Assembly (NCBI GenBank): GCA_949290385.1
Contig: CASERY010000030.1
Coordinates: 4,300 to 68,299, forward strand
Origin: an uncultured bacterium
GTDB lineage: Bacteria; Verrucomicrobiota; Lentisphaeria; Victivallales; UBA1829
Length of the DNA: 64,000 nt
Reading direction: 5' to 3'
Position numbers and translations under genes: made by a program. This document shows positions 6,237-63,938 of this stretch, piece after piece. Position 1 is the first letter of the stretch; each line of letters begins with the position of its first letter. The notes under the pieces were generated by a model, which saw nothing but the letters and a program-made list of their open reading frames with translations, did not search any database and had not been told where the DNA came from.

Positions 6237-8059
6237 TTCTGAAAGAGATCCTGTTGTTCCGCGTCTTTTCCGGGGAAAGCGGAAACCGCTGTTTTTTTCT
6301 AATGACGATGGCGGGCGTGTGTTTCCATCGTTGGTTTTTCTGTTTCAGAAATGGAAGAGATTCCGGAATCGGAATGCGGATGTTTCCGGCCGGAAGACAC
6401 CTCTTTATTGTCCTCCAACATAGCCCGTGCATGCTCGCGGGCAGCAGAACCGCCGCCAAGCATGCGGCAGAGTTCATCCAGTCGCTCTTCCGGGGACAGG
6501 GATAGAAGCGTGGAACGGGTATCCTGTTCACTGGAACTTTTCATTACCAGAAAGTGGCACTCTGCACAGCTGGCTACCATGGGGGAATGGGAGATGCAGA
6601 TAATTTGTTTATGACGGGAAAGTTTGCGCAGTTCCTGTCCCACTTTCCCGGCTGTCTCTCCTCCGATGTTTGCATCAATTTCGTCAAAAATCAGAGTCGG
6701 GATGCAATCGGCCTCCGCAAGAACCGTTTTGGCGGCCAGCATGACCCTTGAAATTTCTCCGGAGCTTGCCACATCTTTCAGCGGACGCAGGGGAACTCCC
6801 GGATTGGCGCTGAAGAGAATCTGAATTTTATCACAGCCTCCCGGGCCGTATTCGGCCTGAGAGAAGTCCACTTGGAATTCGGCCTGGCGGAATCCCAGTT
6901 TCCGGGTTTCTTCGCTGAGCAGGGAAATCAGTCGGCCTGCGGCTTCACGACGGGCGAGACTGATCTGGTCGGAGATCGACTGCAGTTGATGAAAAAGGGC
7001 ATTTTCCTGATCACGGAAAGTCCGACGTGTTTGTTCGGCATTTTCAAATGCGTCTATCCGGCCGCGAATCTCATCCGCGTATTCCAGGACATTCTCAAGG
7101 GAAGGGCCATAGCGGCGTTTCAGGGTCTGAAGAATGCGCATGCGTTCTTCCATCGCCTGGAATTCCGATTCATCGAGCTCCACAGAGGCCGCATGGTGAT
7201 TGAGACTCGAGGATAGATCGGAAACCGATTCAGAAATATTTTCGAGCATCTGAAGGAAGCCTTCGGCATGTTCGGGATCGATCCGTTCCAGATCCAGCAG
7301 GGAGCGGCGGATTTCTGCGATGCGGTCAAAAAGAGAATCTTCTCCTTCTGTCAGTGCACTGCAAAGTTTCATGGCAATTTCCAGGATTGTGCGGGAATGA
7401 CTGGCAAGTTCATGTTTTTGTTTCAAAGCATCGTCTTCTCCCACCTGAACATCTGCCCGCTCAATTTCCTCCAGATCTCTTCGAAAACCGGATATTTCCT
7501 ATTCGGACGGCATGGATTCCAGAAAATGGGCATGCTTTTCCCGTATTTCCTTCAGCTCATTCCAAACTTCAGCATTTTTCTGAAGAAGCTCTGATATGCC
7601 GGCAAAGCGGTCCAGAGCGTCAAGCTGCTCGGAAGATTTGAGCAGACTTTGATTTTCATTGGCTGCGTGGATGTCCACCAGAAGTTCCCCGAAAGAACGC
7701 AGAAGCTGGAGACTTACAGGTGTGGCATTGATAAAATTGCGTGTTGCACTGGGCGTGATGACTCTGCGGATGCAAAGAATATTCGGAGCATCTTCCAGAT
7801 CCAGGGCATTTTCCTTCAAAAGGGCAGCGGCTCTGGAATCGGTTCGGGACAGTTCAAACTCCGCAGAAATTTCACAGCGGTCCGCACCAATGCGGATTGC
7901 TGATTTATCTGCACGTTCTCCGAGGAGCAATCCCACTCCGCCCATGATAACGCTTTTTCCGGCACCGGTTTCTCCTGTGATGACATTGAAAGCGGGGCCA
8001 AACTGGATTTCCGCCTCTTCCACGAGGGCAAGATTTTTCAGTTTCATCCATTTAAGCAT
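6233..8059 (-). CDS. recN: DNA repair protein RecN (in-frame TAG at 7499-7501; second TAG at 6299-6301, frame closes at TGA 6233-6235)
   Basis: ORFs 7499..8068 (N-terminal Walker A, ITGETGAGKS) and 6299..7444 (coiled coil plus C-terminal ABC signature/Walker B, SGGEISRVMLA...LIFDEIDANIGG) share one frame. Together they have RecN length. Start placed at ATG 8057-8059 (MLKWMKLKNLALV). Under code 11 this is two fragments. Confidence 0.85.
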
Positions 8060-8151: not shown

Positions 8152-9249
8152 GTGGTTGAATCTGTTAAAATCATGAATATTTTAGAAGAAGAGTTTGAAG
8201 AATTTTCGCCGGTTCCCCGAATGAGTCCGGGAAATTGGCAGGAATGTTTCCAGCAAATGAATAATGCCAAGAAATCGTTGCAGCAGTCAGATCCTTTGAA
8301 AGAAAATCCCTTCAGGGCCCGCTGGTGGGTTCCTGTGCCAGAAGAAAGAGAGGTTTCCTCTAACTGTTTTTCTGGAGAGACGCCTGGTAGTCCGGGTTCC
8401 CATGAGAAGATTCGGCAGCAGACTGTAGACTCGACGGAATATAAAACTCTGATTCGTTGTCTGCTGTGTCCGCGGCAGTGCCTGATCCCGGATGGAGAAA
8501 GAGGCGCCTGCCGGATGCGTATCCATGAAAACGGATGCCTTTATTCCATAGCTTATGGATTTCCTGCAGAATTGCGTCTGGTGGGAGCGTCGAGCATTCC
8601 ATTCGGAGTTGTCAGACATGACGGAAAGATGCTTTCTGCTGCCTGTTATGGCGGATTTGCTTAGAGTTCATGCTATCCATCTCCGGCGCTTGTGGAGGGT
8701 GATTACCATCCGAGGGCAGTCTACCGCTGGTACAGTGCGGATTCCCTGACAAATCTGTGTGTCCGCTACGGGGCAGACGGACTGGTTTTTTGCGGCGGCG
8801 AACCAGGTACCTGGCTGGAATATGTGCTGGATGTATTTAAGGCTGCTGAAGGGAAAAATCTTCTTCGGGGGACTGTTATTTCCGGCCTTCTGGAGGAGGC
8901 TCCGGCAGGAGAACTGTTTGAGCTGGCCGATAAAGTGACTATATGGATTGACAGTGCATACAATGAACAGGAAATGTCTGCTGCACTCAGAACCGCGGAA
9001 ATAGGAATGAGATTTCCCGGAAAGCTGGAAATTCTTTGGAATATGCCGGCGAAGGAAGGTCCCGACACAATGGCACAGAGTCTGGAATTTCTGCAAAAAC
9101 TTTCAGCGCTTTGTGAAACAAATGGTTGTTCCCGGGAGAAACAGCCTCTGTGGATCGGTGGAGGCGCATCGAGGGAAATACAGTTCAGTCTGAGAGAAAA
9201 AGCCGTCCGGGAAACGGAATTCAAGAACTGCGTAATCTGGACGGAATGA
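8152..9249 (+). CDS. Radical-SAM-activase-like protein with degenerate cluster motif (in-frame TAG at 8662-8664)
   Basis: ORFs 8152..8664 and 8692..9249 are in the same frame. IRCLLCPRQCLIPDGERGACRMRIHENGCLYSIAYG resembles the N-terminal Cys-rich region of PflA/AmmeMemoRadiSam-type radical SAM enzymes as I recall them. The canonical CxxxCxxC is missing where expected (AACYGGFA-TAG-SSCYPSP). The start may be ATG 8173. Stop TGA. Confidence 0.45.
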
Positions 9250-16955: not shown

Positions 16956-17342
16956 AACAGTTCACCCTATTGTTGAATGATGATTTTATGATGGAAATAT
17001 TTCCTATACTTCTCGGTTTGTTTTCCGGTTCGGTCTTGCCGGACTTTTTCAGAATGGCGGGTTCCAGAAATCCCTGTATCAACACATGGGCTGCAGGGGG
17101 GTATAGAGGATTCCGATATGGATTTAAATTCCTGCCGGGAACTTTGTACAGACTCCAGATGGAAGAGAATACTTGGATTAAACAGGAATGAAGTACTGCA
17201 CTGGTCCTGTTCAGCTCCAGAAAATTCCTGAGAATATACTGTCCGTCATAGATCCCGTAATCAAAACCGCATTTCTGAAAAAGTGCCGAATCCTTCTGCT
17301 TTCTGTTTTGTCGGTTGATCCGGTTTATTCAAGATGTGCAGA

Positions 17343-17383
17343 CTGGAATGCGGAATACCCGGATTAAAAAATCCGCATTCCAG
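17343..17383. repeat. Perfect 12-bp inverted repeat (ctggaatgcgga ... tccgcattccag) with a 17-nt spacer
   Basis: Arms at 17343-17354 and 17372-17383, read directly. It lies in the 520-bp spacer between the DegT and Gfo genes (both minus strand). The loop contains a nested cggatt/aatccg palindrome. Confidence 0.9.
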
Positions 17384-17476
17384 CCATCTTCAGACCCGTG
17401 CCTGTACCTCCTTTTTCAGAGGCGGACAGTCACGGACAGGCTTTTTCCTGATATAAGCCTGTCTTCAGAGAAAATC

Positions 17477-18760
17477 TTACTTCATATAGGCATTGGCAAC
17501 TTTATTGAAAGCGTCAATATAGGCCTGTATGTGTTCTTCGGTGTAAACCGGATGCGTAAAGAAACTGATGGTTCTGTCTGTCATCCAGTTGGCCTTCTTG
17601 CAATTGAACTTGGAATAGTCAATATCGCGAGCCTTGGGATCCTTGAACGGATAACGGGCTGTACCGAATCCGCGTTTTTCTGTGTAGGCGGCTTCCTTGT
17701 ACATTTCCGGCCAGAGTACAGAATAAACGGGGACTCCTTCAGCAGCCATGGCTGCAATGAACTGTTTGGTATCGATGCCGTCTTTGAGTTTGTCGGTATC
17801 GAGTACAAACGGAGCCCACCAGAAAGCATCCTGACGTTCCTCTGTATCCAGAGGAGCGATTTTGACCAGCGGATGATCTTTCAGAGCCTTGATGAGCATT
17901 TTGCCGTTGCGTTTACGGTTTGCCAGATTCCAGCTGTCGAAGCGTTTGAGTTCGCTCAGTCCAATGGCGGACTGCATTTCGGTCATACGGAAATTGAAAC
18001 CAACGCGTTTGTGAATGTAAAGCTGTTTGCCTTCCATTTCCAGAAGGTTGAGTTTTGCCTGGACATCATAACCGTGGTCACGGAAAGAACGGCATTCCCA
18101 TGCCAGATTATCGTCGTTGGTGACAACCATACCGCCTTCACCGCCGGTGGTGAAGTGCTTGCTCTGGCAGAAGCTGAAGCAGCCGACATCGCCGATGGTT
18201 CCGGCTTTTTTGCCTTTGTAGACACCGCCGAAGCACTGTGCACAGTCTTCAATGACTTTCAGATTGTGCTTGCGGGCAATTTCCATAATGGGATCCATAT
18301 CGGCAACAATACCGTACAGATGGACAACCACAATTGCTTTGGTGCGCTCATTGATCAGCGCTTCAATTTTGGTGGGATCCATGGTGTGGGAGTCGTCCAC
18401 ATCGCAGAACACGGGCAGTGCGCCTGCCTGCAGTGCGCAGAAGGAGGATGCAATGAAACTGTAAGATGTACAGATTACTTCATCACCCGGTCCAATATCC
18501 AGAGCTCCGAGAGCCACGTGCAGAGCTGCGGTTCCGTTTGTTACGCTGATGGCATTCTTGATGCCGAGCCATTTGGCCCATGCATCTTCAAATTCCATAC
18601 CGATTTTGCCGGTCCAGTAATTGACTTTGCCGGACTGGAGGACCCGCACAACGGACATGATGTCTTCATCAGAGAAGACGGGCCAGGAGGGGAAGGATCC
18701 TTCAAAGACTTTTTTGCCGCCATCGATGGCGAGCTTTTCACTGGTAACTGCCATTTTCAA
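17477..18760 (-). CDS. DegT/DnrJ/EryC1/StrS family PLP-dependent sugar aminotransferase
   Basis: 427-aa ORF. LAIDGGKKVF..., NGTAALHVAL and the FSFCQSKHFTTGEGGMV lysine block are typical of the family. Stop TAA. Confidence 0.88.
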   Translation of the reverse strand: MKMAVTSEKLAIDGGKKVFEGSFPSWPVFSDEDIMSVVRVLQSGKVNYWTGKIGMEFEDAWAKWLGIKNAISVTNGTAALHVALGALDIGPGDEVICTSYSFIASSFCALQAGALPVFCDVDDSHTMDPTKIEALINERTKAIVVVHLYGIVADMDPIMEIARKHNLKVIEDCAQCFGGVYKGKKAGTIGDVGCFSFCQSKHFTTGGEGGMVVTNDDNLAWECRSFRDHGYDVQAKLNLLEMEGKQLYIHKRVGFNFRMTEMQSAIGLSELKRFDSWNLANRKRNGKMLIKALKDHPLVKIAPLDTEERQDAFWWAPFVLDTDKLKDGIDTKQFIAAMAAEGVPVYSVLWPEMYKEAAYTEKRGFGTARYPFKDPKARDIDYSKFNCKKANWMTDRTISFFTHPVYTEEHIQAYIDAFNKVANAYMK

Positions 18761-19431
18761 AACTCCTTTTCAAAAGTTGGATGATTTTGCAGGTACATGT
18801 TAATTGCTGCATAGATTTTTCTTTTCATAATAAAGTTACCAGAATCTGAAGGAAACGCAAAAGAGATGGATTGTTTAAACGAACGGATTGATTGTAAAAT
18901 CTTACGATTTTTTAGATTCATATCTGATTTTTGAAGTTGTCTTTTCCCGGAGGAAAAATTTTTTATTGGTCCAGCTTCCTGCAGAGCCGCCGGGTTTTCA
19001 TTCCAGTTTCAGGCAGGAAAAGACATGATTCATAAATTGTAAAATTTTGATGAGTTTGAATTCAAATAAGAAAAGTTACAGTACGAAAAAATGGAAGGAA
19101 ATCGTTTTTCAGGATAATGTGGTCCAAAGAGGACGGAAGAGTGGGATGAAGCAGCAGAAGGCTGCTGAAACACATGACTGGAGGAAGACTCTCTGTTTTT
19201 GGGGCTGAACTGGACCGGAAACAGGAAGAAAGTTTTTCCTCAAGATTCAGATATTCGGTGTTTGTAACGGGAGGTATACCGTGGAGGGATAGGAAGGAGG
19301 AGGGCTTGTCGTATAAGAATAGCGGGATGTTTAAAAAAGAAGATCATGACTGCCGGCAGAGCCTGGCAGAAATGGAACAGACCGTGCAAGGACAGTCTGT
19401 TCCATTCTGAATTCAGACAGGAGTCTGTGTT

Positions 19432-20223: not shown

Positions 20224-21069
20224 TTACGGGTTCCTTGTGACGGGGTCAACCACTACGATGCCGTCAAAATTGAGGCGGAGACGCCGATTGATCTGAGGAT
20301 TCTACAATCCATGATCCAGTGCCGGAATCAGTCGTCCAGGAATTTCATTGTGAAGTTTCTCCCGGGAAATGTTGGCATCAAGAAAAACCATGAACGGAGC
20401 ATCCTGATGATTTTTGTAAATGAGTTCGCATTGAATATATTTTCCATTGGATACAAAGACTTTTGTCAGCTGAATGGATGGATAGTCAAGTGTAATCATT
20501 TTGATAAAACTTAATACCATCAATGCTGTAGGATCGTCGATGCGTGCGCCCGGCTGGAGCGAAGGCGGCGGCGTGACAAAGGAAAGTTTCGGCAGTTCCA
20601 TGGAAAGATTGGCACAGTAGTCTTTATCCATAATCACGCCGTTTTCATCGATGAGACGCCCCTGGCTCAGTTCGGCTCTGGGAATGCGTTCCAGCATTTC
20701 AACTTCGAGCTTGTCCGGGAGGACGCGGCTTACAGAGACTTTTTCCACTTCCGGAATGTTGTCCATAATGCTTTGTCTGAGCTTTGCCAGATCTATGGAA
20801 AACAGATTGGTATAACCCGGAATCAGCCCAAGTCTGTCGCAGAGGAGGCGGCTTTTGTTTTCACGGTCTTCCGGATTGCTGCCGCTCCAGAAGCCAGCCC
20901 GGCTTTCAATCGAAACATCTTCAAGCGTGAAGCGAGGATTCTTTTCGAAGAGCTGGATCTTTACGAACCAGAGAAGAGCGGCGCTGCCGATCCCGATTAC
21001 GAGAATTATGCAGAGTCCGATCCAGAATTTAGCGGTACCGCTGAGTTTTTCAGCCCATTTGAATGTCAT
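20224..21069 (-). CDS. ftsQ: Cell division protein FtsQ/DivIB-like (POTRA); TAG at 20302-20304 read through to TAA 20224-20226
   Basis: One N-terminal TM segment followed by a POTRA-like block (FTLEDVSIES...NLFSIDLAKLRQSIMDNIPEVEKVSVSRVLPDKLEVEMLERIPRA). The code-11 ORF is 20302..21069. The same frame continues for 25 codons (NPQINRRLRLNFDGIVVVDPVTRNP) to a TAA that directly abuts the next gene's ATG. Confidence 0.6.
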
Positions 21070-21265: not shown

Positions 21266-22066
21266 ATGGAACTGCCTCAGGAACAGCCTGTAAATCTCTG
21301 GACGCACGAACCCCCTCTGGCTCATGGAAATGCTCCGGAAGATATTCCCACAATTACTGCCTATTATCCGGCAGAATGGAGAAAAAATAAAAAAGCCGTA
21401 GTTATTCTGCCTGGCGGAGCTTACTAGTGTCTGGCAGATCACGAAGGAGCCGGCTATGCCAGATGGCTGGCTCATCATGGATATTGTGCCTTTGTTGTAA
21501 AATACCGTCTTGGTTCAAATCACTATCATCATCCTGCTGAAATTTCGGATGCGGCCAGAGCTGTGCGGATTGTGCGCACTCATGCGAAGGAACTGGGAAT
21601 TGATCCGCATAAGATCGGAATCATGGGGTCTTCTGCAGGGGGGCATCTTGCAGCTTCCTGTGCGACTTTTCATGAGATGGGAATCCGGGAGGAAGGCGAG
21701 TCCATGGAGAAGAATCTGGGACGGCCGGATTTTACCATCCTGTGTTATCCGGTGATTTCTTCTGATGAGAAAATCGGGCATACCTACTCTTTTGACATGC
21801 TGCTGGGGCCTGATGCTGATCCTAAACTGAGAACATTGCTTTCCATGGAAAAGTCTGCGGACAAGGATACTCCGCCTGCTTTTATCTGGCATACCTGGGA
21901 GGATCTGGCAGTGCCGGTGGAAAACAGCCTTCTGTATGCTTTGAGACTTAGAGAATGCGGTGTGCGGTTTGATATTCATGTGTACGAAAAAGGCGGACAT
22001 GGCATGGGGCTTGGCGATGGTCATCCCTGGGGAGAAGAGTGCCTGCGTTTTCTGGACAGCATCTGA
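21266..22066 (+). CDS. Alpha/beta hydrolase (esterase) with in-frame TAG at 21425-21427
   Basis: ATG 21266 ... VVILPGGAY-TAG-CLADHEGAGYARWLAHHGYCAFVVKYRL ... GIMGSSAGGHLA (GxSxG nucleophile elbow). The track only lists the 3' part, 21563..22066, in the same frame. Stop TGA. Confidence 0.78.
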
Positions 22067-22434: not shown

Positions 22435-23490
22435 ATGGAACAGAAACAGTCTCAGAAAACCGATCGGTTTCAGCTGATGGCAGCCCCACTTCAAGGCTAT
22501 ACCCTGTCTGATTTCCGGAATGCCCATCGAAAAAGCTGTGGAGGGGCAGATGTCTATTTCACCCCGTTTCTGCGCTTGGAAAAAGGGCTTGTCCGGAAGA
22601 AGGAACTGGCGGATCTGCGCAGAGATTTGGAAGTGGAAAGCCGTGGTATTACTGTCCCCCAGCTGATGGTGAAAAGTCCGGAAGAACTGGCTGTTTTCGT
22701 GGAGACAATCCGGCAGGAAAATGTACTGCGGGAATCCTTTCATTTTCCTCCTTTCCAATGGATTGATTTAAACTTTGGCTGTCCGTTTCCGAAAATGACG
22801 GAACATGGATATGGCGCCGGAATTCTGGCAGAAGAGGATTGTGTGAAAAAACTGCTCTGCTCACTGAAAAAATATCCGGACTTTCATTTCTCTGTGAAAA
22901 TGCGTGCAGGAATGCATTGTCGCGATGACTGGAAGAAATTGGTGGGATTTCTCATTGATGCAGATCTGGAGCTGGTTGTTTTTCATGGAAGAACAGGCGA
23001 TCAGGGATATGACGGCGAGGCAGACTGGACTCTCTGTCTGGATTTTGCTGAATGTTATGGCGGGCGTGTCGTGTATAATGGCGACATCCGGACGCTGGAA
23101 CAGGTTCGTTTTCTAAGGGAAAAGATTCCACATTTGTGCGGAATCATGGCAGGTCGCGGTCTTCTGGCCAATCCTCTGCTGTTTCTGGAAATCCGGGAAA
23201 ACGGAAAAAGATACCTGCAGGAAAGAATTCAGCATTTGGAGCAGTATACTACATATTTCCTGGAGGAAGTTTCCCGCAGAACAGATCAGGTTCTTCCGGA
23301 GTAGAAGCGATTATGGGATTTTTTTCTGCCGGAAGCGGATAAGCGTCTGCGTAAAAAAATCCAGAAATCAACAGATCTGGATGAATATCAGTTCTGGGTG
23401 AAGGAACTTTTTTCTCAGATGACGGAATCCGGAAAAGAGGATAGCAGTCCTTCCGGGAATGAGGATGAGCCGGACCTGGAAGATTGTTAA
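22435..23490 (+). CDS. tRNA-dihydrouridine synthase family protein (in-frame TAG at 23302-23304)
   Basis: ORF 22435..23304 has Dus TIM-barrel motifs (MAAPLQGYT, DLNFGCP, VKMR, HGRT). The same frame continues after the TAG as KRLWDFFLPEADKRLRKKIQKSTDLDEYQFWV... to TAA 23488-23490. This resembles the conserved C-terminal tail of this Dus subfamily as I recall it. Confidence 0.82.
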
Positions 23491-23640: not shown

Positions 23641-25026
23641 TTAAAAAATTTCCCGGCAGTCGGCCAGAATGGAAAGACCTTCTCTTAATTTTGCAAAACT
23701 GCCGGCGGAAGAGAGAGAGACTCGGAGAAAAGGGTGTCTGGGATTTTTCCGGACAGCAAAATGGTCTGAATGCTGAACTAAAATCCCCTTTTCGGCAAGA
23801 GTTTGCTCAATGCGTGCACCGCTTTCCCGGGAGGCGATAGGCAGACTCCGGAAAAAGGCATAAGGATGAGCACTGCTGTCATTCATCTCCGGGAAAATTT
23901 GATTGAACAGCTGATTGGCTTTTAAGGCAAGAGATTTCTTTTTTTCGAGAATGGCGGATGCTTTTCCGCTGAGAATGAGTTCCGTGATAATTTCCGCATC
24001 CAGAGAGGAACTTTTAATGTTCATACTGTAAAGTCCGTGAAGAATGCGTTTGCGGAAGGCTTCCGGAAATGCGGCAAAGGCTATGCGTATGCCGGTGCAG
24101 AGATTTTTCGTGGAACCGCAAATAAAAAATGTCTGGTCCGGAAGCATGGAGAAAAGGGAGCGGACGGGACCTTTCCCGGATCCGAGAGTGCCCATGAGGT
24201 CATCTTCAAGGAGGATGAGACGGTGTTTCTGTATGATTTGTGCAAGGGCTTTTTTCCTGTTTTCCGACATGCTGAGAGCTGTTGGATTGGAGCAGGAAGG
24301 CATCAGAAAGATGCCGCTGATTTTTTCACGGGAACATTGTTTGTCCAATGCTTCGGGATCCATGCCTTGCGCATCTCCGGGAATGGGGATGATCTGGAGG
24401 TGAAACAGTTTTGCAGCCTCGATAAAATTGGCATAGGTGAATTCGTCTGCTGCGATGCGGTCCCCCAGACGGAAAAGGGAGACCAGTGCTACAGTCAAAG
24501 CGTTTTGCGCTCCTGAAAAAATGGCGGTGTGATTGCAGTCTGTACGGACATCCATCTGTTCCATCCAGCGGACGCCTGCCGCACGTTGATGCAGATGGCC
24601 TTCCGCATCTGAATAGGCACAGAGCTTTTTCAGATATTCTTTGCTCAGAACAGACTACGCAGTTTCAGGAATGAAATCATTGCATTCATCAAATACATGA
24701 ACAATGCCAAGCTGAATTTTTCCGGATGGATTCAGAAAATCATTTCCGTGGCCGGTATATGGCGCCGTAAAGGTGCCTTTCCCTGCAATGCCGTAGATTA
24801 AATGTTTCTCCCGACAGAGATCATACGCTCGTGTGACGGTTGTAAAATGAATGTCCAGAAAGTCGGCCAGCTCCCGCTGGGGTGGAAGACGTGTGCCGGG
24901 AGCCAGATGGCCGTTTTGAATATCTTCTTCCAGCAGGTTTGCTAGAGAGAGGTAGCAGGGTCTGGATAATTTGGAACGATCGGGTCTCCAGCTCATTTTA
25001 TAATTTTCAAAGGAATTGACCGGCAT
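23641..25026 (-). CDS. pdxR: MocR/GabR-type regulator (GntR wHTH + aminotransferase-like domain), PdxR-like; in-frame TAG at 24655-24657
   Basis: ORFs 24655..25026 (wHTH, LPPQRELADFLDIHFTTVTRAYDLC) and 23641..24564 (fold-type I PLP domain) share one frame with no other stop between them. The gene is divergent from pdxST, the arrangement known for PdxR. Stop TAA. Confidence 0.8.
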
Positions 25027-25156
25027 AAGGATTTGTCTCCTGAAATTTGTAATCCATACAATTTAATCATTTGTATGTATTATATCCTCTGATATAGTAA
25101 ACAGCAAACGTTTTCCGGAAAAAATACATACATATAAAAACAGTCAGGAGAAAGAA

Positions 25157-26032
25157 ATGAACGAAAAACAAGCTGAATTGAACCGCAACCTTGCCCAGAT
25201 GCTCAAGGGTGGCGTAATTATGGATGTTACAACTCCGGAACAGGCTCGTATTGCTGAAGAAGCCGGAGCCTGTGCCGTGATGGCTCTGGAAAGAATTCCT
25301 GCAGATATCCGGGCTGCCGGAGGAGTTTCCCGCATGAGCGACCCGAAAATGATTAAGGGAATCCAGCAAGCTGTTTCGATTCCTGTGATGGCGAAGTGCC
25401 GAATCGGGCATTTCGTGGAAGCTCAGGTTCTGGAGGCAATTGAAATCGATTATATCGACGAAAGCGAAGTGCTTTCGCCTGCCGATGATGTTTACCATAT
25501 TGACAAGACTCAGTTCCGAGTTCCCTTTGTCTGCGGAGCCAGAGATCTGGGAGAGGCGCTCCGGCGCATTCATGAAGGAGCTTCCATGATTCGGACCAAA
25601 GGGGAGCCCGGAACGGGAGACATTGTTCAGGCGGTTCGCCATATGCGGAAGATGAATGCGGAAATCCGCAGACTGGTTTCCATGCGTGAAGACGAACTGT
25701 ATGAAGCCGCCAAGCAGCTTCAGGTGCCTTGCGATCTGGTCTTTTATGTGCACCAGAATGGAAAACTGCCGGTCGTGAACTTTGCCGCAGGCGGAGTGGC
25801 AACTCCCGCAGATGCCGCACTTATGATGCAGTTGGGTGCAGAAGGCGTCTTTGTCGGATCCGGCATTTTCAAATCAGGAAATCCGGCCAAGCGTGCGCAG
25901 GCCATTGTAAAAGCTGTTACCAATTTCAAAGACGCTGGAATGATTGCGGAGCTTTCCGAGGATCTGGGAGAAGCCATGGTCGGCATCAATGAACAGGAGA
26001 TTCAGCTGCTTATGGCGGAAAGAGGCCAGTAA
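25157..26032 (+). CDS. pdxS: Pyridoxal 5'-phosphate synthase lyase subunit PdxS
   Basis: [41 protein letters not shown]... is highly conserved PdxS/SNZ sequence. Stop TAA. Confidence 0.96.
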
Positions 26033-26034
26033 GA

Positions 26035-26631
26035 ATGCGTGAAAGAATTGCGGTCCTGGCTTTGCAGGGGGCGTTCCTGGAACATGAACAGGCTTTGGAA
26101 AGACTCAATATAGACTGGTGTGAAATCCGTCAGGCGAAGGACCTGGAACAGGCTTTTGACGGACTGATTCTGCCTGGAGGAGAAAGCACCGTTCAGGGGA
26201 AGCTGCTTCGGGAGCTTGGACTTTTCCATGCATTGAAAAAGCGCATTGAAGATGGAATGCCAGTCATGGCAACCTGTGCCGGGTTGATTCTGCTGGCAGA
26301 ACATTTGGTGGATGATCCCACTGTGTGGTTCGGAACACTTCCTGTAACCGTGCGCAGAAATGCCTACGGTCGGCAGCTGGGGAGTTTTTTTACTCGGGGG
26401 GCTTTCGGCGACATTGCAGACTGTCCCATGACATTCATCCGTGCGCCGTTCGTGGAGTCATGTCGTCCCGGTGTTGAGGTCCTTTCTCGCTTCGACGGCC
26501 AGATAACAGCAGTCCGCTGGCAGAATCAGCTTGCCATGGCATTCCATCCGGAACTGGACCAGGATATGCGTATTCACCGGAATTTTCTGGAGATGGTCCG
26601 GCATCCTGCTTCTTGTCTCTGTTGCTCATAA
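26035..26631 (+). CDS. pdxT: Pyridoxal 5'-phosphate synthase glutaminase subunit PdxT
   Basis: IAVLALQGAFLEH...LILPGGESTV...GTCAG-like MATCAGLILL...FHPE. It starts 2 nt after pdxS. Stop TAA. Confidence 0.93.
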   Translation: MRERIAVLALQGAFLEHEQALERLNIDWCEIRQAKDLEQAFDGLILPGGESTVQGKLLRELGLFHALKKRIEDGMPVMATCAGLILLAEHLVDDPTVWFGTLPVTVRRNAYGRQLGSFFTRGAFGDIADCPMTFIRAPFVESCRPGVEVLSRFDGQITAVRWQNQLAMAFHPELDQDMRIHRNFLEMVRHPASCLCCS

Positions 26632-26975: not shown

Positions 26976-27314
26976 TTAAAAAACCGTTTGAATCAGGATC
27001 ATGTAAAAAAGGGTGGAGGAAAGAATGGACAGAAGGGGATTGTGCTTCCAGAGCTGGAGTCCTACGCAGAGCGCCGAAGCCAGAAGTTCCGGAATACCGT
27101 AGGGACTGCTGAAAACAGGCGTATTCTGAAAACAGTAGACAATCAGAAGCTAAATGACGGCAGGACTGATTACCCGTCCGATGTAGAGGATGACTTCCGG
27201 AGGGTTCTTGTCTTTTCTGCCGAATGCGGCAAATGCAAAACCCCGAAGAGCAAATGTGACCGCGAACATAACGGCTGTCGCGCTCAATAAATAGGTTGTA
27301 GAAGGAGTATCCAT
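26976..27314 (-). CDS. azlD: Branched-chain amino acid transport protein AzlD (in-frame TAG at 27150-27152)
   Basis: Not in the ORF track because it is split below 60 aa. The reverse strand reads MDTPSTTYLLSATAVMFAVTFALRGFAFAAFGRKDKNPPEVILYIGRVISPAVI-TAG-LLIVYCFQNTPVFSSPYGIPELLASALCVGLQLWKHNPLLSILSSTLFYMILIQTVF-TAA. The start overlaps the azlC stop (TGATG). Size and hydrophobic pattern are typical of AzlD. Confidence 0.75.
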
Positions 27315-28108
27315 CAGGAAGTGGCTGTGTCCTTTCTGCCGGTCGTGCTACTGCTGCTGGAGATGCACGCCTGGCTGTCTTGCCCTTCAGAAACGGAGGA
27401 TTTGTTTTCTGTGCGGGACGTTCCTTCCAGCTTTTTCCGGAAGCTCAACAGCAGAATCAAAATTAAAACAATGGCGGGGATCAGCATGTTCCCGCGGAAA
27501 ACAGTCAGAGAGATCAATCCGCAAAGTCCTCCGATGACTGCCGGAATGCGGTTTTCTTTTCTGGCAAGCTGATCCGTAAGGATGACCATGAAGAGTCCTT
27601 GCATGGCAAAATCAATGCCTTCGGAATTGAATTCGACAAGACTGCCTGCAATATTGCCGAGGACAACTCCCAGAATCCAGTAGGAATGGTCCAGCGCTGC
27701 AATCAGGAAACAATACGTGACAGAGTCTTCTCCGGGAGGTGTTTTGTTTTCCACTTCCAGGGCAAAGGTTTCGTCTGTGAGCGTAAGAATCATGTAGAGT
27801 TTCAGGGCCGGCTTCAGATTTTTCCAGCGCTGGATAAGGGGCAGTCCATAAAGTGCATAGCGGAAATTCAGGCAGAAGGTGATAAGTGCTACTGAAATGA
27901 GCGCTGTTTGATTGCAGAACATATCTACAAGCAAAAACTGCAATGCTCCGGAAATACTGGTTGCCGAGGTTATCAATGCCCAGAATGCTCCCAGGTGTGC
28001 TTTTCCTGCAAGGAGAATTCCTGCTGCGATCCCCATGGCAAGGTATCCCATGAGAACCGGCAGTGATGCTTTGAACGCGGCGGATGCAACTTTTCGGGTG
28101 AAAACCAT
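27314..28108 (-). CDS. azlC: Branched-chain amino acid permease AzlC
   Basis: 264-aa polytopic ORF with the LPVLMGYLAMGIAAGILL N-terminal motif typical of AzlC. It is followed by azlD. Stop TGA. Confidence 0.82.
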   Translation of the reverse strand: MVFTRKVASAAFKASLPVLMGYLAMGIAAGILLAGKAHLGAFWALITSATSISGALQFLLVDMFCNQTALISVALITFCLNFRYALYGLPLIQRWKNLKPALKLYMILTLTDETFALEVENKTPPGEDSVTYCFLIAALDHSYWILGVVLGNIAGSLVEFNSEGIDFAMQGLFMVILTDQLARKENRIPAVIGGLCGLISLTVFRGNMLIPAIVLILILLLSFRKKLEGTSRTENKSSVSEGQDSQACISSSSSTTGRKDTATS

Positions 28109-28711
28109 GGAACGCCATTCCTTTATGGAGAGAATGCAGAATGATGTGAATAGAAATATGAATAAATACTATACTCCGGAATCAGGAAAACTCAAGAATA
28201 ACAGTGTCTTCCTGCTGTAAAAATAAACCTGGAGAAAAAAAGCTTGAATGAGAGTGGTATTTTCACCGTCTTTTTGAAAATCGTTTTGAAAATCCCGGCT
28301 TACCGTAGTGATCGAGTGAACCGGATAAAGAAAAGCAGATCCGCCACTTCCCGGAGACAGGATCCTTTCCGGAAGCGGAGAAGAAAAAATGTATTTCAGG
28401 ACAGAATTAAAAAAAACAAGGAACAAGATTTTATTTTTATATGTCTGAAAAAAAAGAATCTTTTTTCCCCTTGAATATATAAAATCATAAAATAAAGAAA
28501 AAAGAAAAATAAAGACAATTATTTGTTTTACAGGATCCAAATTGATCAAGAAACATAATTTTCGTCCTGAAAAAAAAGAGGAAATAAAAAAACTGTCTTT
28601 TTACAAATAAAACTTTAAAAATATTTGCATAATAGCTGAGTGATGATAACATAACAATGAAAGGATCCAGAAATACAGACGGAAAAACAAAAATTTTCGG
28701 GAGAAAACTTC

Positions 28712-29659: not shown

Positions 29660-30271
29660 ATGTCTGATATCAAAACGATATTTGCCGATGAAGTCCGAAG
29701 ATTGTCCCGGAAAGAAATTAAAGTAGCAACATCATCTTTTGCCGGCCAGATTTAGACTTTGAAAAAAGAAATAGCTGAGCTTTCCCGTGAACTGAAAAAA
29801 TTGAAAAAAGAGGAAGAAGACCTGAAAAAAGTCTCAGAAATGTTCTGTTCAGCGGGTTTTCCCCATGGCAATGGCTCTGAAGAAAGTCATTCAGAATCTC
29901 CTGCACATCCTAAGCAGTTCCGTGTCAGTGGAGCCCGGCTTGCAAAAATTCGGAAGAAACTGGGATTGACCCAGGCAGAATTCGCTGCAATTCTGAATGT
30001 TACAACGCTGACCGTCTCAAATTGGGAACGAGGTAAGAATAAAATCCGCCAATGCCAGAAAAAAGCCATTGCAGAGTTGAGCCGGATGAGCCGCAACGAC
30101 TTGAATGCATTCCTGGCTGAAAAGTTGCCGGCTCACAAAATAGATAAGCCTCATGGCATTCGCCTGCATCATCGAAAGGAAAAGGATTCCAGCATTCAGG
30201 CCTTTCCGGAAGAGGAAATTGAACCGGATACGGAGAATGAAATTCATGAGGTTTCGGTATCTGCAGTATAA
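29660..30271 (+). CDS. XRE-family HTH protein with N-terminal coiled coil (in-frame TAG at 29753-29755)
   Basis: A strong SD (AAGGGAGG) lies upstream of ATG 29660. The sequence reads MSDIKTIFADEVRRLSRKEIKVATSSFAGQI-TAG-TLKKEIAELSRELKKL..., then the HTH LGLTQAEFAAILNVTTLTVSNWERG. The track lists only 29759..30271, in the same frame. Stop TAA. Confidence 0.75.
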
Positions 30272-33571: not shown

Positions 33572-33604
33572 TAAAGATTCTGTTTCAATAAAAGAATCGA
33601 GAAG

Positions 33605-40164: not shown

Positions 40165-41085
40165 ATGGCCGGCATAGTTGCAGAAAAAATGATTGAGATG
40201 TTTGTCATCCTGATTGCAGGAATGATCATCTATAAATGCAAACTGGCAAATGCACAGGCAAGCAAAACACTGTCCAATCTGCTTCTGATGGTGGTTTCCC
40301 CGCTGCTGATTCTTGAGTCCTATCAAATGCCATTTGACTGGGGGCTGTTTTACGGCCTGCTGTGGACTTTTTAGATTTCACTGATCATGTTTGGAATCAT
40401 GATTGTTCTTTCGGAAATTTTTTTCCACGGGACGGGAAAAAGAATTCCGGTGGAAAAACTCTCCTCCGTTTATTCCAATTGCGGATTCATCGGATTCCCT
40501 TTGATTGACGGTATCTTCGGGGCAGAGGGAATTTTCTATATGACTGCCTATACAACGGTTTTCAATCTCCTTTTCTGGACGCACGGAGTCTGGGCAATGG
40601 GCAGTGGGGGAAATGTGAAAAGTACTTTGAAGAGTTTGTTTACTCCGGCTATTGTGGCTGTATTCCTGGGGCTTTTTCTGTTTGTAGCGCAGATTCGTCT
40701 GCCTGAAACGCTTGCTGAGCCGCTGGATATGATTGCGGATATGAATACGCCTCTGGCGATGATTGTGGCCGGAATCAACCTGGCTCAGGCCGACTTCCTG
40801 AAGAGTCTGAAGAAGATCCGAATTTACTGTGTCTGTCTTCTGAGACTTGTTTTTTTCCCGCTTGTCGGAATCCTGATTCTCGCGCAGCTGCCGCTGGATT
40901 TCAAGGTGCTTTTTACGGTTTTTATCGGAATGGCTTGTCCATCGGGGGCCATGGTGATTATGTTTGCGGAACGCTATGGCAAGGATGCGCTGTATGCTTC
41001 TGAAATTTTTACCTTGACAACCATTCTGTGTGCGGGAACGATTCCCGTGCTTTCCATTCTGGCTGTAAAGATGTTTGTCCATTAA
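40165..41085 (+). CDS. AEC (auxin efflux carrier) family transporter (in-frame TAG at 40372-40374)
   Basis: ORFs 40165..40374 and 40387..41085 are in the same frame. Together they give a roughly 300-aa polytopic protein with AEC-like N- and C-terminal halves. Stop TAA. Confidence 0.78.
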
Positions 41086-42155: not shown

Positions 42156-43175
42156 ATGAAAACGTATTTTATGAAAAGATTTACTGAAAATTTCAGAAGA
42201 GTTTTTCCCCGGGGATTCGTTCTGCTGATTGTGCTTCTGCTGTTCGCTTCCGGATGCTCAGACGTCTATTATATGCTGAAGACCTCGGCGGACAGTCGGT
42301 GGGCTGAGGCCAGGGCTTTGCGTATCCAGGCTCAGAAGGAAACGAAGGAGGCGCTGGAGAAAGGAATATCCAAAGGTGAATTCAAAGGGGAAAAATGGAT
42401 TCTTCCTTCCGGGGAGTGCGATGAAATCTGGATAGGTCGCGTAGAGTCATGCGGATTTATGAATGATTCTGGAAACTGCTTTGTGACGCTTTATCATGCG
42501 GTGTGCCTTTATTCCTTTGAAAGAGATGAACCAGGCAAGGAATCTTTTCTGACAATGGAAGGACATATTCTTCAGTTTCCTCATCAGCGTTTCCCGGAAG
42601 AGGGTCAATGGGTGCTTGCCGCAGTAACTCGCTCAAAAGTTCCGGAAGATGATACCGTCTGCATGGAAAATGCCGTGGATGCCCAATTTGACAGCAGCGG
42701 CAATTTAATTTTATTGTCCCGCTGTACACTGCCGAGAAAATTTGTTCAGGCTCTTCTGGATATTGATCCGAAAACGAAGATTCACTTTGCAAAAGACGAT
42801 GCGCGCGGAACTGGATCTCTGCTGGACGGCCGTGTATCGTTTGATTTCCGGGAACTTTTCTTTGCCGATATCGCTGCAGAACCGGTAACCAGATAGACCG
42901 GAGAGGACGGCCGGGAATTTGTAGAATATGCAGGACGTCTTGCCGACAGCGGCCGGATTATTCCTTGCGGCCCGGATTTCTCAAGAGGCTTGACAGACGA
43001 GGAATTTTTTGCCAATCCGTATATCGATGCGGGTTATTTTTTTATACGATTCCGGTTTCCGGCGGAACAGGAGTCCGTATTTTCACAATTTCTTGGGCCG
43101 TATCCTCCGCCGGCAACAAAAGATCAGGGAGAATCAGCCGATGTTGAACATTCAACGGGTCCATATGGACCGTAA
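42156..43175 (+). CDS. Hypothetical lipoprotein (TAG at 42894-42896 read through to TAA 43173-43175)
   Basis: Signal peptide with lipobox (LLLFASGC). The code-11 ORF is 42156..42896. The same frame continues as TGEDGREFVEYAGRLADSGRIIPCGPDFSRGLTDEEFFANPYIDAGYFFIRFRFPAEQ..., which is the same frame as track ORF 42990..43175. The extension is plausible but unverified. Confidence 0.5.
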
Positions 43176-48615: not shown

Positions 48616-50481
48616 ATGGAGTCACACATGATGAAGTCGATTTGGAAACAAATGGTTCTCCTGGCGGGATTGTTCTGTTGTTCGGAACTCGCCGCAGACG
48701 ATGTATATTTCGACGCGACGCCGCAGCAGAGTCCAGTGCTTGCAGATGGAATCGGTTCATCTCCGGAAGAACGGGGAAGAATCGATTCTTTGTTTTTATT
48801 CGCAAAGGCGCTTTCTGAAAGTCCCAATGGTCTTCTGACGCCTGAAGCAGCGGATATACAATGTCAGGCATTCTGTGAAATTCTGGCTGCTGATCCGGGT
48901 AATGCAGCCGTGCTTGGACGCTTGTTGTCTCTTTACCAGGAATATCCGGAAACGGTAAAGGTATATGAAAAGCGTATCCGGGAAATTCAGGCTGCCCATC
49001 CGGCAGAACCGGGCCTTGCGTATTTCGTTGCCATTTTCCTGGATTATTTTGAAGGTCGTACCGAAGAGAGTCTGAAGCTGCTGAAAGACTGTATCATTCA
49101 GGCAGAAAGGGCGGAGCCTTTTGCTTCTCTTTCTCCGGAGAGCCCTGATTTCTGGCTCAGACTGGATCTGTTGACTCAGTTGTTTCGCATGGAAGAATCT
49201 GTGAATCCGGAGGCGGAGCCTGTTTTAGTACGGGAAATTCTTTATTCCAGTCCTTATCTGGGACAGAATGTTTCAGCAATGGTGCTGTAGCTGTCTCTTG
49301 CAACAAAAGACATTATAATTTATCCTCCATATTTTGCCACAGGAACTCCGGGAGAAACTGCACTGGAGAATTCGCCTCTGGCTGCGATGGAGTCCTTTTC
49401 AGACTTGGAGGATCTGGCATTGAAGCTTTTGAAGGAAATGCCAGATTTTACATACGAAGGGGATCCCCGCAATCTTATAGAGATTCTGGGTGTTTTTTCT
49501 GTGCGTCCGAAACTGCTGGAAGACTGTCTTCAGGATTTAAAGGAATCTTCCCAGAAAAAGGATTCCTCTGAATACAGTCTGGCACTTGCCGCAGTCTATA
49601 GCTTGCACGGGAATCATGAAAAGGGCGCTGCAGAATATGCTGAGCTTGCAGCCAAAGGCAAAAAAAGACTGTCCGCACAGGAATATGTGCAATGGGCTTC
49701 ATGCCTTTTAAACCTGGAGGATATGACGGGTGCGGCAAAGGTTCTGGAGAATGGGCTGAAGAAATATCCCGAAGAACAGGGTCTGATTCGGAGATTGCTT
49801 GTCTGTTATGCCAGGCTTGGAAATAAGAAAGGCGTTCTGGAGATGCGGAAGCGTCTGCTGGAACAGTATGAGAAACAGTTTTATTTAATGTATATGGCGG
49901 CCTTGTCCGGATATTACCAGCAGGGATATGCCGTGGGACAGAACATTGAGAGAAGTCTGCCCGAAGAAGAACTTTTCCAGCCGGGTATGCTGCCGTTCTG
50001 GGTAACATACCTGTCCTGCATGGGGGAGTCTGCGGATATCGCAGAGTTTCATGAGAAGGCCGAAAAGTGTCTGAAGCATTTTCCCAATGACCCGAATCTC
50101 CTTAATACGGTTGGCTATGTTTATGCGGATCGCAATGTGTACTTGGACCTGGCGGAGAAATACTTGCAGAGAGCTCGCAGAATGCTCCCGGATGCAAGTG
50201 AGATAGCCGACAGTCTGGCCTGGCTTTATTTCCGCCAGGGAAAACTGGACCTGGCAAAAAAGGAGATGTTTGAAAGTCTGGTTCTTGCCGGATCAGAGCC
50301 GGCTCCGGAAATTCTGGATCACGCAGGAGATATTTTTCTAAGTTCCGGCGATCTTCGTGCAGCGTTGAAGTACTGGTAGACAGCATATGAGTTTTCTCCG
50401 GACGGATCTGAAATAAAACAGAAAATCGAAGAAAAAATTCAATCTCATTCCAGTTCAGCCGGAAAACCAGGAGAGATTTGA
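48616..50481 (+). CDS. Secreted TPR-repeat protein (in-frame TAGs at 49288-49290 and 50377-50379)
   Basis: ORFs 48526..49290 and 49387..50379 are in the same frame with no other stop between them. After the second TAG the frame continues as TAYEFSPDGSEIKQKIEEKIQ... to TGA 50479-50481, completing a TPR helix-B pattern. The signal peptide is MMKSIWKQMVLLAGLFCC. Confidence 0.7.
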
Positions 50482-55266: not shown

Positions 55267-56190
55267 ATGAAAATAAGTTTGAGATAGAGTTTTTTATTTT
55301 TCTTGCTGATACAGTCGCTTGTTTGGACGGTGGGCTGCTATCAGATTGTACCCCGGAACTATGCGCAGAGAATTGAGCCCGGCGGAACGATTGAAGATCA
55401 CTTTTTGAAAATGGGGCCTTATAAAGTCGCGAGAACAGACATTGATTATTCCGGAAAAGAGGAGGAAGTGTATGCAATCTGGTATCCGGAGAATATCGGC
55501 GAACTTGACAGGAAATTTCCATTGATTATTGTCAATGGAGGAAAGGGAGAGAAAGCCTCTCTTTGTGAAAGTTTGTTTGAACATCTGGCCTCCTGGGGAT
55601 TTATCGTTGCCGGCATGGAGCAGGACCTTTCGTGGGAAGCGTCGGAGGCTGGAATGATCTTAAAGAGAATGCGGCAGCTTCATACTGTGCAGGAATGCGA
55701 ATATTTGAGCGCAAATCCGTTTTATGAGAAGGTGGATCTGGACCGGATTGGTATATATGGTCATGCTCAGGGAGGGGCTGGAAGCATCAACAGCATTGCC
55801 GGGGGGGAGAATGGGGCTATGTACAAAGCTGCTTTTATCAGCAGTCCTGCTGAGCCGGAGCGTGTTCATTTCCCTGAATGGGAACATGATTTGTCCAGTA
55901 TCAGTATCCCGATTGTGCTTTGTGCCGGAACAGATACCGCAGAGAAGGAGCAAAAATGTTCTTTGGGAAAAATGAGATTCATGTATGACCAGATTCCATC
56001 CAGAATCAAAGTGATGATGTGCCGGCACGAGAACAGCCATGATGAAATGCTGTACGCTGCGGATGGTTATATGACTGCTTTCTTTATGTGGCAGCTGCAG
56101 GATGATCAATCTGCAGCGGGCGCGTTTACTGTCGAAAATGCTGAAATTCTGAGAAATCCAGCCTATCAGGATGTAAAGAAGAATTTTTGA
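55267..56190 (+). CDS. Secreted alpha/beta hydrolase (dienelactone-hydrolase/cutinase-like) with in-frame TAG at 55285-55287
   Basis: GGAGG lies 7 nt upstream of ATG 55267. The sequence reads MKISLR-TAG-SFLFFLLIQSLVWTVGC..., a signal-peptide-like N-terminus. The track ORF 55303..56190 is in the same frame. GIYGHAQGG is the nucleophile elbow. Stop TGA. Confidence 0.7.
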
Positions 56191-56855: not shown

Positions 56856-56858
56856 GGT

Positions 56859-61278: not shown

Positions 61279-62778
61279 ATGGTGCCGGATGGGGCCGACT
61301 CGAAATGTTTTTTCAGAAAAATCGGCAGAAATGCAGGGGCCGCATGGTGGATCCCGACTCTTTATTTTGCAGAAGGGGCACCTGCTTCTATTTTTACAGA
61401 AGTCTCAGTTCCGATTTTCATGTCCTTCCAAATGAGTGAAGGGATGATTGCTCTCTGGTCCAATCTGCTGGGACTTGTGCCGATTCTGTTGATTAAAATA
61501 CTATGGGCGCCTTTCGTGGATGCTGTCAGCACAAAGCGCTTCTGGATTATTATGACACAGATTTCCATGGCCGTTGTCTTTTTCTTTTCGGCGGCGGCAT
61601 GCTGTGCGGGCAGTCTTGCTCCGCTTCTTCTGATCAGTACATTTGCCCTGGGGGCCTTTTTTTCCGCAACCCATGATGTGGCGGCAGACGGATATTACAT
61701 TATTGCTCTTTCTGAACGGGAACAGGCGCTGTATTCCGGTTTGCGCAGCGTGTTCTTCCGGGTGGCCATGATCGCGGCAAACGGAGGACTGATTTTGTTC
61801 GCCGGGTTCCTGTCGGATGCGGTCGCAGGTGAGATGAACGATGTTCGTGCGGGATTCGTCTGGATGATCAGTTTGCTGATTCCGGGTATCCTGATGGGCC
61901 TGCTGGCACTTTATCACTGGATGGTTTTGCCGGAGAGAGAAGAAAAACAGAAAAGCAGGATTTCAGGCAGATGCGGGAATGGAGAATGGAGTTCCCGCAA
62001 CGGCTGCGGGGAAAAAAATTCCGTTTCAAAAAAGCTTCAAGAGGAAAGTAGCGAAAAACGAATTGGCATCCGGCAGATTTGGCAGGATTTCAGACAGTCA
62101 GGCGTCCTTTTTTTCAAAAAGCGACAGGTGGGGACAGTCTTGCTGTTCCTGTTGTTTTTCCGTTTATAGGAATCCCAGCTGGGAGCCATGTCCAAACTCT
62201 TTCTCCTGGATTCGCAGAACGGAATGGGCCTGACTCTGAAAAGCTATGGATTCCTGGCTGGGACTGTTTCCCCGGCAATGCTTCTGGCCGGAGGGGTCCT
62301 TGCCGGCTGGGTTGTCACCCGAACAGGCCTGGATAGAATGCTGATGATGATGGCTTGTGCCATCAATCTGCCTGATCTGGTTTATCTGTGGATGGCTTTT
62401 TGCCGGGAAATGCCGTTATGGGGCGTGGGAATTTGCACAGGCATTGAAGCATTCGGATACGGATTTGGATTTACCGGTTATATGCTGGTCATGGTGTGGT
62501 TCGCTGCAGGAAGTGGAAAATGCAAGACCAGTCACTATGCCCTGATGACCGTGTTTATGATTGCAGGTTATCGAATTCCGGCCATGTTTTCCGGAAAAAT
62601 ATTTGAAGGGTTCAAAGCTCTGCTGGATCATGCTTTTATAAAAACAGATCTTTGTGCACTGCCTTATCAGGTTTTCTTTGTCTGGGTGATGATCTGTACA
62701 ATTCCGGGGTTTATAGTCTCCAGACAAATGCTAAAGCATATGACTCCGCATTATGGAATGAAGGATAAGCTGGATTAA
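61279..62778 (+). CDS. ampG: AmpG-family muropeptide MFS transporter (in-frame TAG at 62167-62169)
   Basis: GGAGG lies upstream of ATG 61279. WWIPTLYFAEGAP...ILWAPFVDAVSTKRFW and, after the TAG, ...LFLLDSQNGMGLT...GIEAFGYGFGFTGYML...KTSHYALMT match AmpG blocks. ORFs 61279..62169 and 62188..62778 are in the same frame. Stop TAA. Confidence 0.82.

Positions 62779-62867: not shown

Positions 62868-63938
<1,071 letters not shown>

Follow-up and report, generated by a model that had tools for sequence, protein, structure and literature searches.

We found that the gene of a MocR-type transcriptional regulator, located at 23641-25026 (minus strand) in a stretch of 64,000 nucleotides of contig CASERY010000030.1 (called the window below, meaning the whole stretch of DNA that was analysed), contains an in-frame TAG, and that such codons recur in many other genes of the window, which is a chromosomal segment of an uncultured bacterium of the Lentisphaeria found in animal-gut metagenomes. 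The best explanation, which we regard as likely, is that this uncultured gut bacterium translates TAG wherever it is present and ends its genes with TAA or TGA only, the inserted residue being a small one and most likely alanine. We take TAG to be a sense codon in this Lentisphaeria lineage because the in-frame stops are TAG only, no gene terminates in TAG, and a sister species also has a TAG in rpoA; these sequence data argue, with high confidence, that TAG would be sense throughout the genome of the source bacterium.

The frame of the regulator starts at 25026 and reads MPVNSF...DFIPETA-TAG-SVLSKEYLKKLCAYSDAEGHLHQRAAGVRWMEQMDV, exactly as quoted in a first-pass annotation of the window. The TAG is the sole stop within it, and full-length MocR-type proteins match it from residue 1 to 461:

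23641..25026, minus strand: MocR-type (PdxR-like) regulator, 461 codons plus stop, with one TAG read through and the terminator TAA at 23641-23643.
24655-24657, minus strand: in-frame TAG of the regulator, codon 124 of 462, in the interdomain linker.

With X placed at the TAG, the regulator gave 1340 homologue matches, and the best full-length ones share 51-58% identity with it at 97-100% query coverage; their sources are mostly metagenome-assembled genomes (MAGs) of Lentisphaeria, Oligosphaeraceae and Victivallales, together with Bacillota. Pfam identified a GntR winged helix-turn-helix (HTH) domain (PF00392, residues 25-86, E 5e-11) and an aminotransferase class I/II-like domain (PF00155, residues 135-452), in which GSTKNL, the context of the pyridoxal phosphate (PLP) lysine, lines up with SFSKVL, the lysine motif in LysN (2egy); NCBIfam MocR-like models cover residues 13-457 as a single stretch. 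The orthologue columns G143, H144, H146, Q147, R148 and A150 are invariant and fall between the TAG and the next ATG, so the stretch that follows the TAG must be translated; the restart at this ATG used by standard gene callers yields a protein of 307 amino acids (P0001) that would lose these residues. A second, independent assembly (L001, 99.5% identical), made from a different sample, also has the TAG. A local defect as the cause of the regulator TAG is ruled out.

Genes were called with TAG as a sense codon and a self-trained codon model, resulting in 45 genes for the window, 44 of them complete. At least 13 window genes have an in-frame TAG, and none has an in-frame TAA, an in-frame TGA or a frameshift. 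The TAG sites that the first-pass annotation had mentioned in the Dus, AmpG, AzlD and tetratricopeptide repeat (TPR) genes are all present among the following:

6299..6301, minus strand: TAG in the C-terminal tail of recN, past the end of the RecN profile.
7499..7501, minus strand: TAG of recN (gene 6233-8059), with the RecN equivalog model matched end to end with X.
8662..8664, plus strand: TAG of an AmmeMemoRadiSam-like gene (8173-9249), encoding a degenerate radical-SAM-like protein.
20302..20304, minus strand: TAG near the C-terminus of an FtsQ-like POTRA protein (gene 20224-21069), followed by RLRLNFDGIVVV, which we take to be an FtsQ-like motif.
21425..21427, plus strand: TAG of a BD-FAE/Abhydrolase_3 esterase (gene 21266-22066), after PGGAY.
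23302..23304, plus strand: TAG of a DusB-like tRNA dihydrouridine synthase (gene 22435-23490), codon 290.
27150..27152, minus strand: TAG of azlD (gene 26976-27314), inside a membrane helix.
29753..29755, plus strand: TAG of an HTH_3 protein (gene 29660-30271).
40372..40374, plus strand: TAG of an AEC/Mem_trans transporter (gene 40165-41085).
42894..42896, plus strand: TAG of a hypothetical lipoprotein-like gene (42156-43175).
49288..49290, plus strand: first TAG of a TPR protein (gene 48616-50481).
50377..50379, plus strand: second TAG of the TPR protein, at residue 588, which is position 25 of the TPR_2 repeat 564-596.
55285..55287, plus strand: TAG at codon 7 (MKISLR-TAG-SFLFF) of gene 55267-56190, in a putative signal peptide.
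62167..62169, plus strand: TAG of ampG (gene 61279-62778), in the motif FRL-TAG-ESQ.

Two of these sites are ambiguous: the one at 55285-55287, since the choice of the start site is uncertain, and the one in the recN tail that ends at 6301. Same-species contigs extended the window rightward by about 15 kb, to 79 kb in all (leftward it is bounded by the contig end), and further TAGs are found on the right flank: one in rpoA (LEG-TAG-AIS), one in obg (DPGE-TAG-TLATF) and a total of five in two hypothetical proteins. When X was placed at the TAG, three proteins passed their NCBIfam equivalog cut-offs as single full-length stretches: RecN (444.5 against 407.85 bits), Obg (472 against 406) and RpoA (393.5 against 302). 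The Pfam matches to BD-FAE, AzlD and TPR_2 also cross their TAGs; for example, the TPR_2 repeat at 564-596 runs on beyond the TAG at residue 588. Similarly, the DusB profile match (13-323) spans the TAG at residue 290. Overall, the density of TAG in genes is about 1 per 1000 codons.

The terminators of the 44 complete window genes are TAA (25) and TGA (19), with no TAG. Related Lentisphaeria use TAG for 20 out of 335 stops of long open reading frames (ORFs) at 26 loci, and in one relative it ends one of 27 called genes; such low use agrees with TAG having been rare even before its capture. Standard-code gene callers split every TAG-bearing gene, as would be seen if the TAGs were inactivating mutations (pseudogenes or split genes) or artefacts of assembly or sequencing; but random nonsense mutations in these genes are expected to give TAG only 35-45% of the time, so that at least 13 in-frame stops, all of them TAG, have p < 1e-4 under random nonsense mutation, with never a TAA, TGA or frameshift. 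Essential genes are hit, some splits would fall inside membrane helices, and conserved residues lie between the TAG and any restart codon. The covered sites are, moreover, identical in up to seven independent same-species assemblies that come from several studies and share 99.5-99.8% identity: a second assembly covers 11 of the 22 TAG sites examined and has TAG at each of them, and the ampG TAG is identical in six other assemblies. We therefore consider pseudogenes or artefacts highly improbable.

At the TAG column of RpoA, the nearest database homologue (P0241, 93% identity) has Q. The DNA of its eight contigs (L095-L102, flagged 'translates_to_query: no') has TAG at that column, so the Q is an artefact of translation with code 15, and we rejected glutamine as a candidate derived from this protein. 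The sister species represented by these contigs keeps the TAG at rpoA site 1; its rpoA contains one more TAG, and a nearby MFS gene contains two. The two species are well separated, as 140 of the 342 rpoA codons differ synonymously between them. The next RpoA relatives (89% identity and below) have no stop in rpoA; their site 1 codons are GCC, TCG or the like, and their site 2 is CCN. Scans of metagenome and viral sequences with RpoA found no further members of the recoded clade. Judging from these alignments, TAG as a sense codon would be a trait common to the two related species. In addition, public proteins of the clade have been translated with code 15, giving Q at TAG, and can mislead homology-based inference of the residue; the use of code 15 for the sister contigs suggests that such bacterial contigs get handled like phage.

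The first-pass annotation had placed the regulator TAG on a conserved tryptophan of an FP-x3-W motif, and had taken this as a clue to the residue; such decoding could rely, for example, on a tRNA-Trp with a CUA anticodon or on A-to-I editing that turns UAG into UIG. A single transition separates TGG from TAG, and F-I-P-E-T-A-TAG is superficially like the motif. However, tryptophan occurs in none of 120 homologues in a MAFFT alignment in which the site is ungapped apart from one truncated same-species fragment; the column reads E63 K27 R13 A4 Q4 S3 G2 H1 V1 D1 plus this one gap, and the other homologues are 51-58% identical to the regulator. The consensus of the orthologues around the TAG is GFDxVRxPVIEAT-[E/K/R]-xVLKKGYLxxLYSY: the F-I-P of the query that was taken as 'FP' corresponds to V-I-E, and the orthologues, which read VIEAT-[E/K/R]-xVLKKGYL, lack F-x-P. 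An alignment of this kind was the check that the annotation itself had proposed, and it puts the TAG outside any FP-x3-W motif. An alignment of the linker region to PDB structures gave HTH matches only, and no usable alignment of GabR at the TAG. Tryptophan is also absent from the AzlD, AmpG, RpoA and AEC columns described below, is found in three of 94 representatives at the esterase column, and has summed log-odds of about -17; it is already refuted at the alignment level, and we regard it as practically excluded. The two closest regulator homologues (57%) have serine at the column, and others have alanine or glycine. The regulator TAG is an ordinary case at a variable, solvent-exposed linker position, and says little about the residue and nothing for tryptophan.

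Seven other columns were compiled. The AzlD column reads G39 A2 (41 loci), in agreement with the small residue expected there by the first-pass annotation, and the AmpG column reads G57 A55 S4 P2 (118 homologues), so that the glycine named for this site was correct and alanine is found as well. RpoA site 1 has A91 S23 T3 G1 (leaving out the Q from code 15), and site 2, in the sister species, has P106 A3 S3 N3. The AEC column reads G12 A9 L9 V5 F4 I4 S1, with alanine in the closest homologue (60%). The esterase column contains G34 S11 A10 R6 Q6 V5 and others among 94 library representatives, and two further homologues have H and A. For RecN, seven library representatives gave A3 E3 G1, which becomes A3 E4 G1 with one genome-locus match. 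The second TPR site falls on a polar position (repeat position 25), as had been suggested. For the Dus and radical-SAM-like sites, a search of the representative library gave self-fragments only and no homologue column; a chimeric AmpG/AEC/esterase/Dus query was dominated by AmpG matches, with two esterase matches and none for AEC or Dus.

We combined eight columns into a likelihood tally (log-odds against background, pseudocount 5, uniform prior), including the three additional sequences mentioned above (A and H at the esterase column, E at the RecN column). Alanine (+3.8) and glycine (+1.2) are the only residues with summed log-odds above background; serine (-4.9), glutamate (-11.2), lysine (-13.8), glutamine (-14.8), leucine (-16.1) and tryptophan (-17.3) are all below it. 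The posterior of alanine is 0.74-0.99 with all eight columns. By our own reading, the TAG sites in the RecN coiled coil, in TPR helix B, in membrane helices and in Ala-rich helices of a hypothetical protein would fit alanine over glycine. Alanine is also favoured because alanyl-tRNA synthetase (AlaRS) recognises G3:U70 and ignores the anticodon, while bacterial glycyl-tRNA synthetase (GlyRS) needs C35 and C36. From the columns it seems fairly safe to say that the residue would be alanine or glycine. Alanine by itself has about an even chance of being the residue, and glycine by itself appears possible, if rather unlikely; apart from a small share for serine, what remains would go to other or mixed decoding.

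Glutamine, read by a tRNA-Gln(CUA) as in code 15 and in TAG-recoded gut phages, is the residue to which UAG has most often been reassigned elsewhere and is one transition away (CAG to TAG); besides the database Q at the sister TAGs, which comes from the code-15 translation of P0241, it occurs in 4 of the 120 regulator homologues and in 6 of the 94 esterases. But it is absent from six of the eight columns (AzlD, AmpG, RpoA-1, RpoA-2, AEC and RecN), its log-odds are about -15, and the genes are chromosomal housekeeping genes rather than phage genes, making glutamine very unlikely. Several points favour serine, via a tRNA-Ser(CUA): seryl-tRNA synthetase (SerRS) ignores the anticodon too, one mutation turns TCG into TAG, TCG is the codon of close relatives at RpoA site 1, the two closest regulator homologues have serine, and it makes up a minor share of most columns with small residues (23/119 at RpoA-1, 11/94 at the esterase, 4/118 at AmpG). 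Its counts at AzlD (0/41) and AEC (1/45) and its position about 8.7 nats below alanine nevertheless make it improbable.

Across the 22 TAG sites we found no shared sequence context, apart from a weak tendency for a purine to follow the TAG, and no downstream structure, including structures like PYLIS or SECIS. This speaks against signals of the selenocysteine (Sec) or pyrrolysine (Pyl) style, and missing context is expected for decoding that does not depend on position. A further reading is pyrrolysine throughout the genome, as reported for some archaea; pyrrolysine is the only known natural decoding of UAG in prokaryotic cells, and the regulator column is rich in Lys, Arg and Glu. Yet a bulky residue is implausible at the conserved Gly/Ala sites in the membrane helices of AzlD, AmpG and AEC and at the Ala/Ser site of RpoA, the TAG sites lack a downstream structure, no pyl-like domain appeared among the products annotated with Pfam (same-species loci and TAG-bearing genes, with the window partly annotated), and a search of the open literature yielded nothing that connects Lentisphaerae with a pyrrolysine system; we give this reading very little credence. 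Another possibility is that no dedicated tRNA exists: with release factor 1 (RF1) lost, near-cognate tRNAs (Gln, Tyr, Lys, Trp) would decode TAG at a slow rate and give mixed products, as in RF1-deleted E. coli. Such read-through takes no new parts, and TAG is rare (about 1 per 1000 codons); but Gln, Tyr, Lys or Trp would be harmful at conserved small-residue sites in the essential rpoA and obg, and one TAG has been kept in two species despite heavy synonymous divergence, so that this alternative too is improbable.

Several points weigh against the preferred reading, in which TAG is sense throughout and encodes alanine. The tally covers no more than eight columns, and these point to different residues: AzlD has almost exclusively Gly, RpoA-1 has nearly all Ala or Ser, and RpoA-2 of the sister species has Pro. 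When only columns of the own species are used, the posteriors are close to even (0.51-0.67 for alanine against 0.33-0.49 for glycine). The TAG at 6299-6301 in recN is the only one in the window that is possibly still a true terminator. ARAGORN identified no tRNA gene in the window, in the 79 kb or in nine related loci (drawn from same-species (seven) and sister-species (three) contigs), and the decoding tRNA is thus unseen. It takes two or more mutations to get from a Gly, Ala or Pro codon to TAG, which makes the evolutionary path conjectural. The strength of the case is further tempered in that translation of TAG is inferred from sequence.

If TAG is indeed translated as alanine, a tRNA with a CUA anticodon would decode it, and an Ala-type tRNA(CUA) would be the easiest route, because AlaRS reads G3:U70 and not the anticodon. 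RF1 would be gone or have become narrower in specificity, and RF2 would serve TAA and TGA; the path to TAG would probably have led via TCG (Ser), a step that is conjecture. The fuller proposal, that a clade of uncultured gut Lentisphaeria reassigned UAG to alanine and lost RF1, is one whose chances we would put a little short of even. The window also encodes, at 56277-56858 (minus strand), a 192-amino-acid protein with an RF-1/GGQ domain (ATGHGGQKINKTSS), which is below the cut-off of every release-factor-type model: the best is PrfH, with 66 against 166 bits, and matches to RF1, RF2 and ArfB are weak as well. This is an unusual factor of the peptidyl-tRNA hydrolase type, in a genome with a seemingly changed set of stops.

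The first-pass annotation had called the regulator a PdxR-like MocR protein. The MocR part is borne out by the GntR and aminotransferase domains, and the PdxR part by context only: the protein is below the cut-off of the NCBIfam PdxR equivalog NF052282 (142.8 against 320 bits), and below that of its best NCBIfam model, which is EhuR-like (293 against 480 bits). The 'PdxR-like' label is reasonable by its divergent pdxS-pdxT context, and not by model score; the two genes are on the opposite strand, 130 bp away:

25027..25156, no strand: intergenic region between the regulator and pdxS, 130 bp, with several copies of TGTAT/ATACA-type motifs; candidate operator.
25157-26032, plus strand: pdxS (PF01680, SOR_SNZ).
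26035-26631, plus strand: pdxT (PF01174, SNO).

The intergenic region contains the direct repeat ATTTGTA (two copies) and the inverted repeat TAATCCATACAA/TTGTATGTATTA; judged by pattern only, these repeats could be a MocR operator. Linkage to pdxS/T was observed in 31-33 of 80 homologue loci of the regulator. A profile scan of genome contigs with the regulator alignment gave a best match of 58% identity among the matches listed, among which the flanking synteny consists of pdxST and azlCD only. Like the known MocR/GabR/PdxR family, the regulator has a GntR winged HTH, a class-I aminotransferase-like domain with the GSTK PLP lysine, and a position divergent from pdxST; unlike it, the regulator is under the PdxR and EhuR cut-offs and has no FP-x3-W at the TAG position. 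It is a member of a subfamily common to Lentisphaeria and Bacillota that lacks FP-x3-W at this position. The azlC-azlD genes (26976-28111, minus strand) adjoin the regulator and pdxST. Linkage of azlCD to the regulator occurs in 41 of the 80 homologue loci, all of them from Bacillota and none from Lentisphaeria, and this hints at horizontal transfer of the block.

Other observations concern individual genes and regions. The protein encoded at 8173-9249 (plus strand) has only an N-terminal Cys-rich stretch in common with AmmeMemoRadiSam enzymes (36.9 against 220 bits); it reads CYGGFA-TAG-SSCYPSP at the place where we would presume a CxxxCxxC cluster, and it may be a degenerate, non-catalytic relative of radical SAM enzymes. 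To the right of the window, a secreted hypothetical protein at 19589-20792 of contig L089 has four in-frame TAGs in about 270 codons, a density far over the genome average. The same contig contains, just right of the window (5900-7906), a gene for a fusion of phosphoglycerate kinase and triosephosphate isomerase (668 amino acids), after gap. Two regions of about 0.9-1.1 kb (5334-6232 and 47517-48615) have no confident gene and contain low-scoring ORFs, one with a TAG at 5987. Several very long ORFs free of stops run opposite to the genes of a DegT-type aminotransferase, H+-pyrophosphatase, PNPase and GAPDH, probably as a consequence of scarce sense codons CTA, TTA and TCA (CTA 1.4 and TTA 3.5 per 1000):

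17279-18784, plus strand, against 17477-18769, minus strand: antisense-ORF region.
31286-33607, minus strand: antisense-ORF region.
52400-53623, minus strand: antisense-ORF region.
62880-63980, minus strand: antisense-ORF region.

A crude screen for pairs of ORFs joined by a TAG, applied to every locus, yielded mainly off-frame noise and was set aside.

Bacterial codes with a reassigned stop use UGA: in table 4 it encodes Trp (Mycoplasmatales, some endosymbionts and Eggerthellaceae), and in table 25 Gly (Absconditabacteria/Gracilibacteria). As in our case, one stop has been captured genome-wide in these bacteria and the other two kept, with a cognate tRNA and loss of a factor to be expected; unlike in our case, the codon and factor are UGA and RF2, where here UAG and (by expectation) RF1 are concerned, in Lentisphaeria (PVC group) and apparently with Ala or Gly. 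The case works like tables 4 and 25, on another stop codon. A screen of 250,000 genomes (eLife, PMC8629427) reported that all known bacterial changes reassign UGA, and a 2026 preprint on gTranslate has tables 4, 11 and 25 only for bacteria. The same preprint names UAG as pyrrolysine (citing Kivenson et al., 2025) as the first case in archaea of a stop codon reassigned throughout the genome. There, too, every UAG of a prokaryotic cell is sense, and the change is hard to detect as coding density hardly changes; the archaea differ in having pyl machinery and a bulky lysine derivative, in contrast to the conserved Gly/Ala sites here. UAG was reassigned to alanine in the mitochondria of Hydrodictyaceae, which are green algae, with changes in the release factor (PMC6821328). 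That is the same codon and residue, but in an organelle genome with few genes, whereas here it would be in the full-size chromosome of a free-living or gut bacterium, with alanine inferred statistically from eight columns. Gut phages with code 15 (Lak and crAss-like) also have in-frame TAGs in animal-gut contigs for which callers switch to code 15; they use suppressor tRNAs in hosts with the standard code, unlike the present case, in which the genes are housekeeping genes of the chromosome (rpoA, obg, recN, pnp, gap and gatB) and the columns reject glutamine. Searches of the open literature for Lentisphaerae together with UAG, RF1 loss or code 15 returned only papers on phages, organelles, eukaryotes and engineering.

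According to the open literature, UAG is otherwise sense only for pyrrolysine, and in phages, organelles and eukaryotes; if the alanine reading is true, this would be the first case of a bacterial cell turning UAG from a stop into a codon for a standard amino acid. In practice, standard gene callers split about a quarter of the genes of this organism, and quality scores of its MAGs will drop; phage-aware callers label the contigs as code 15, and the resulting Q at TAG pollutes protein databases, for example in P0241. If true, the finding would add a new genetic code table, with UAG as alanine or glycine in a bacterial lineage. It would also mean that RF1 is dispensable in nature, providing a natural counterpart of the engineered E. 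coli that is free of RF1 and TAG, a natural orthogonal tRNA(CUA), and a test case for codon capture versus an ambiguous intermediate.

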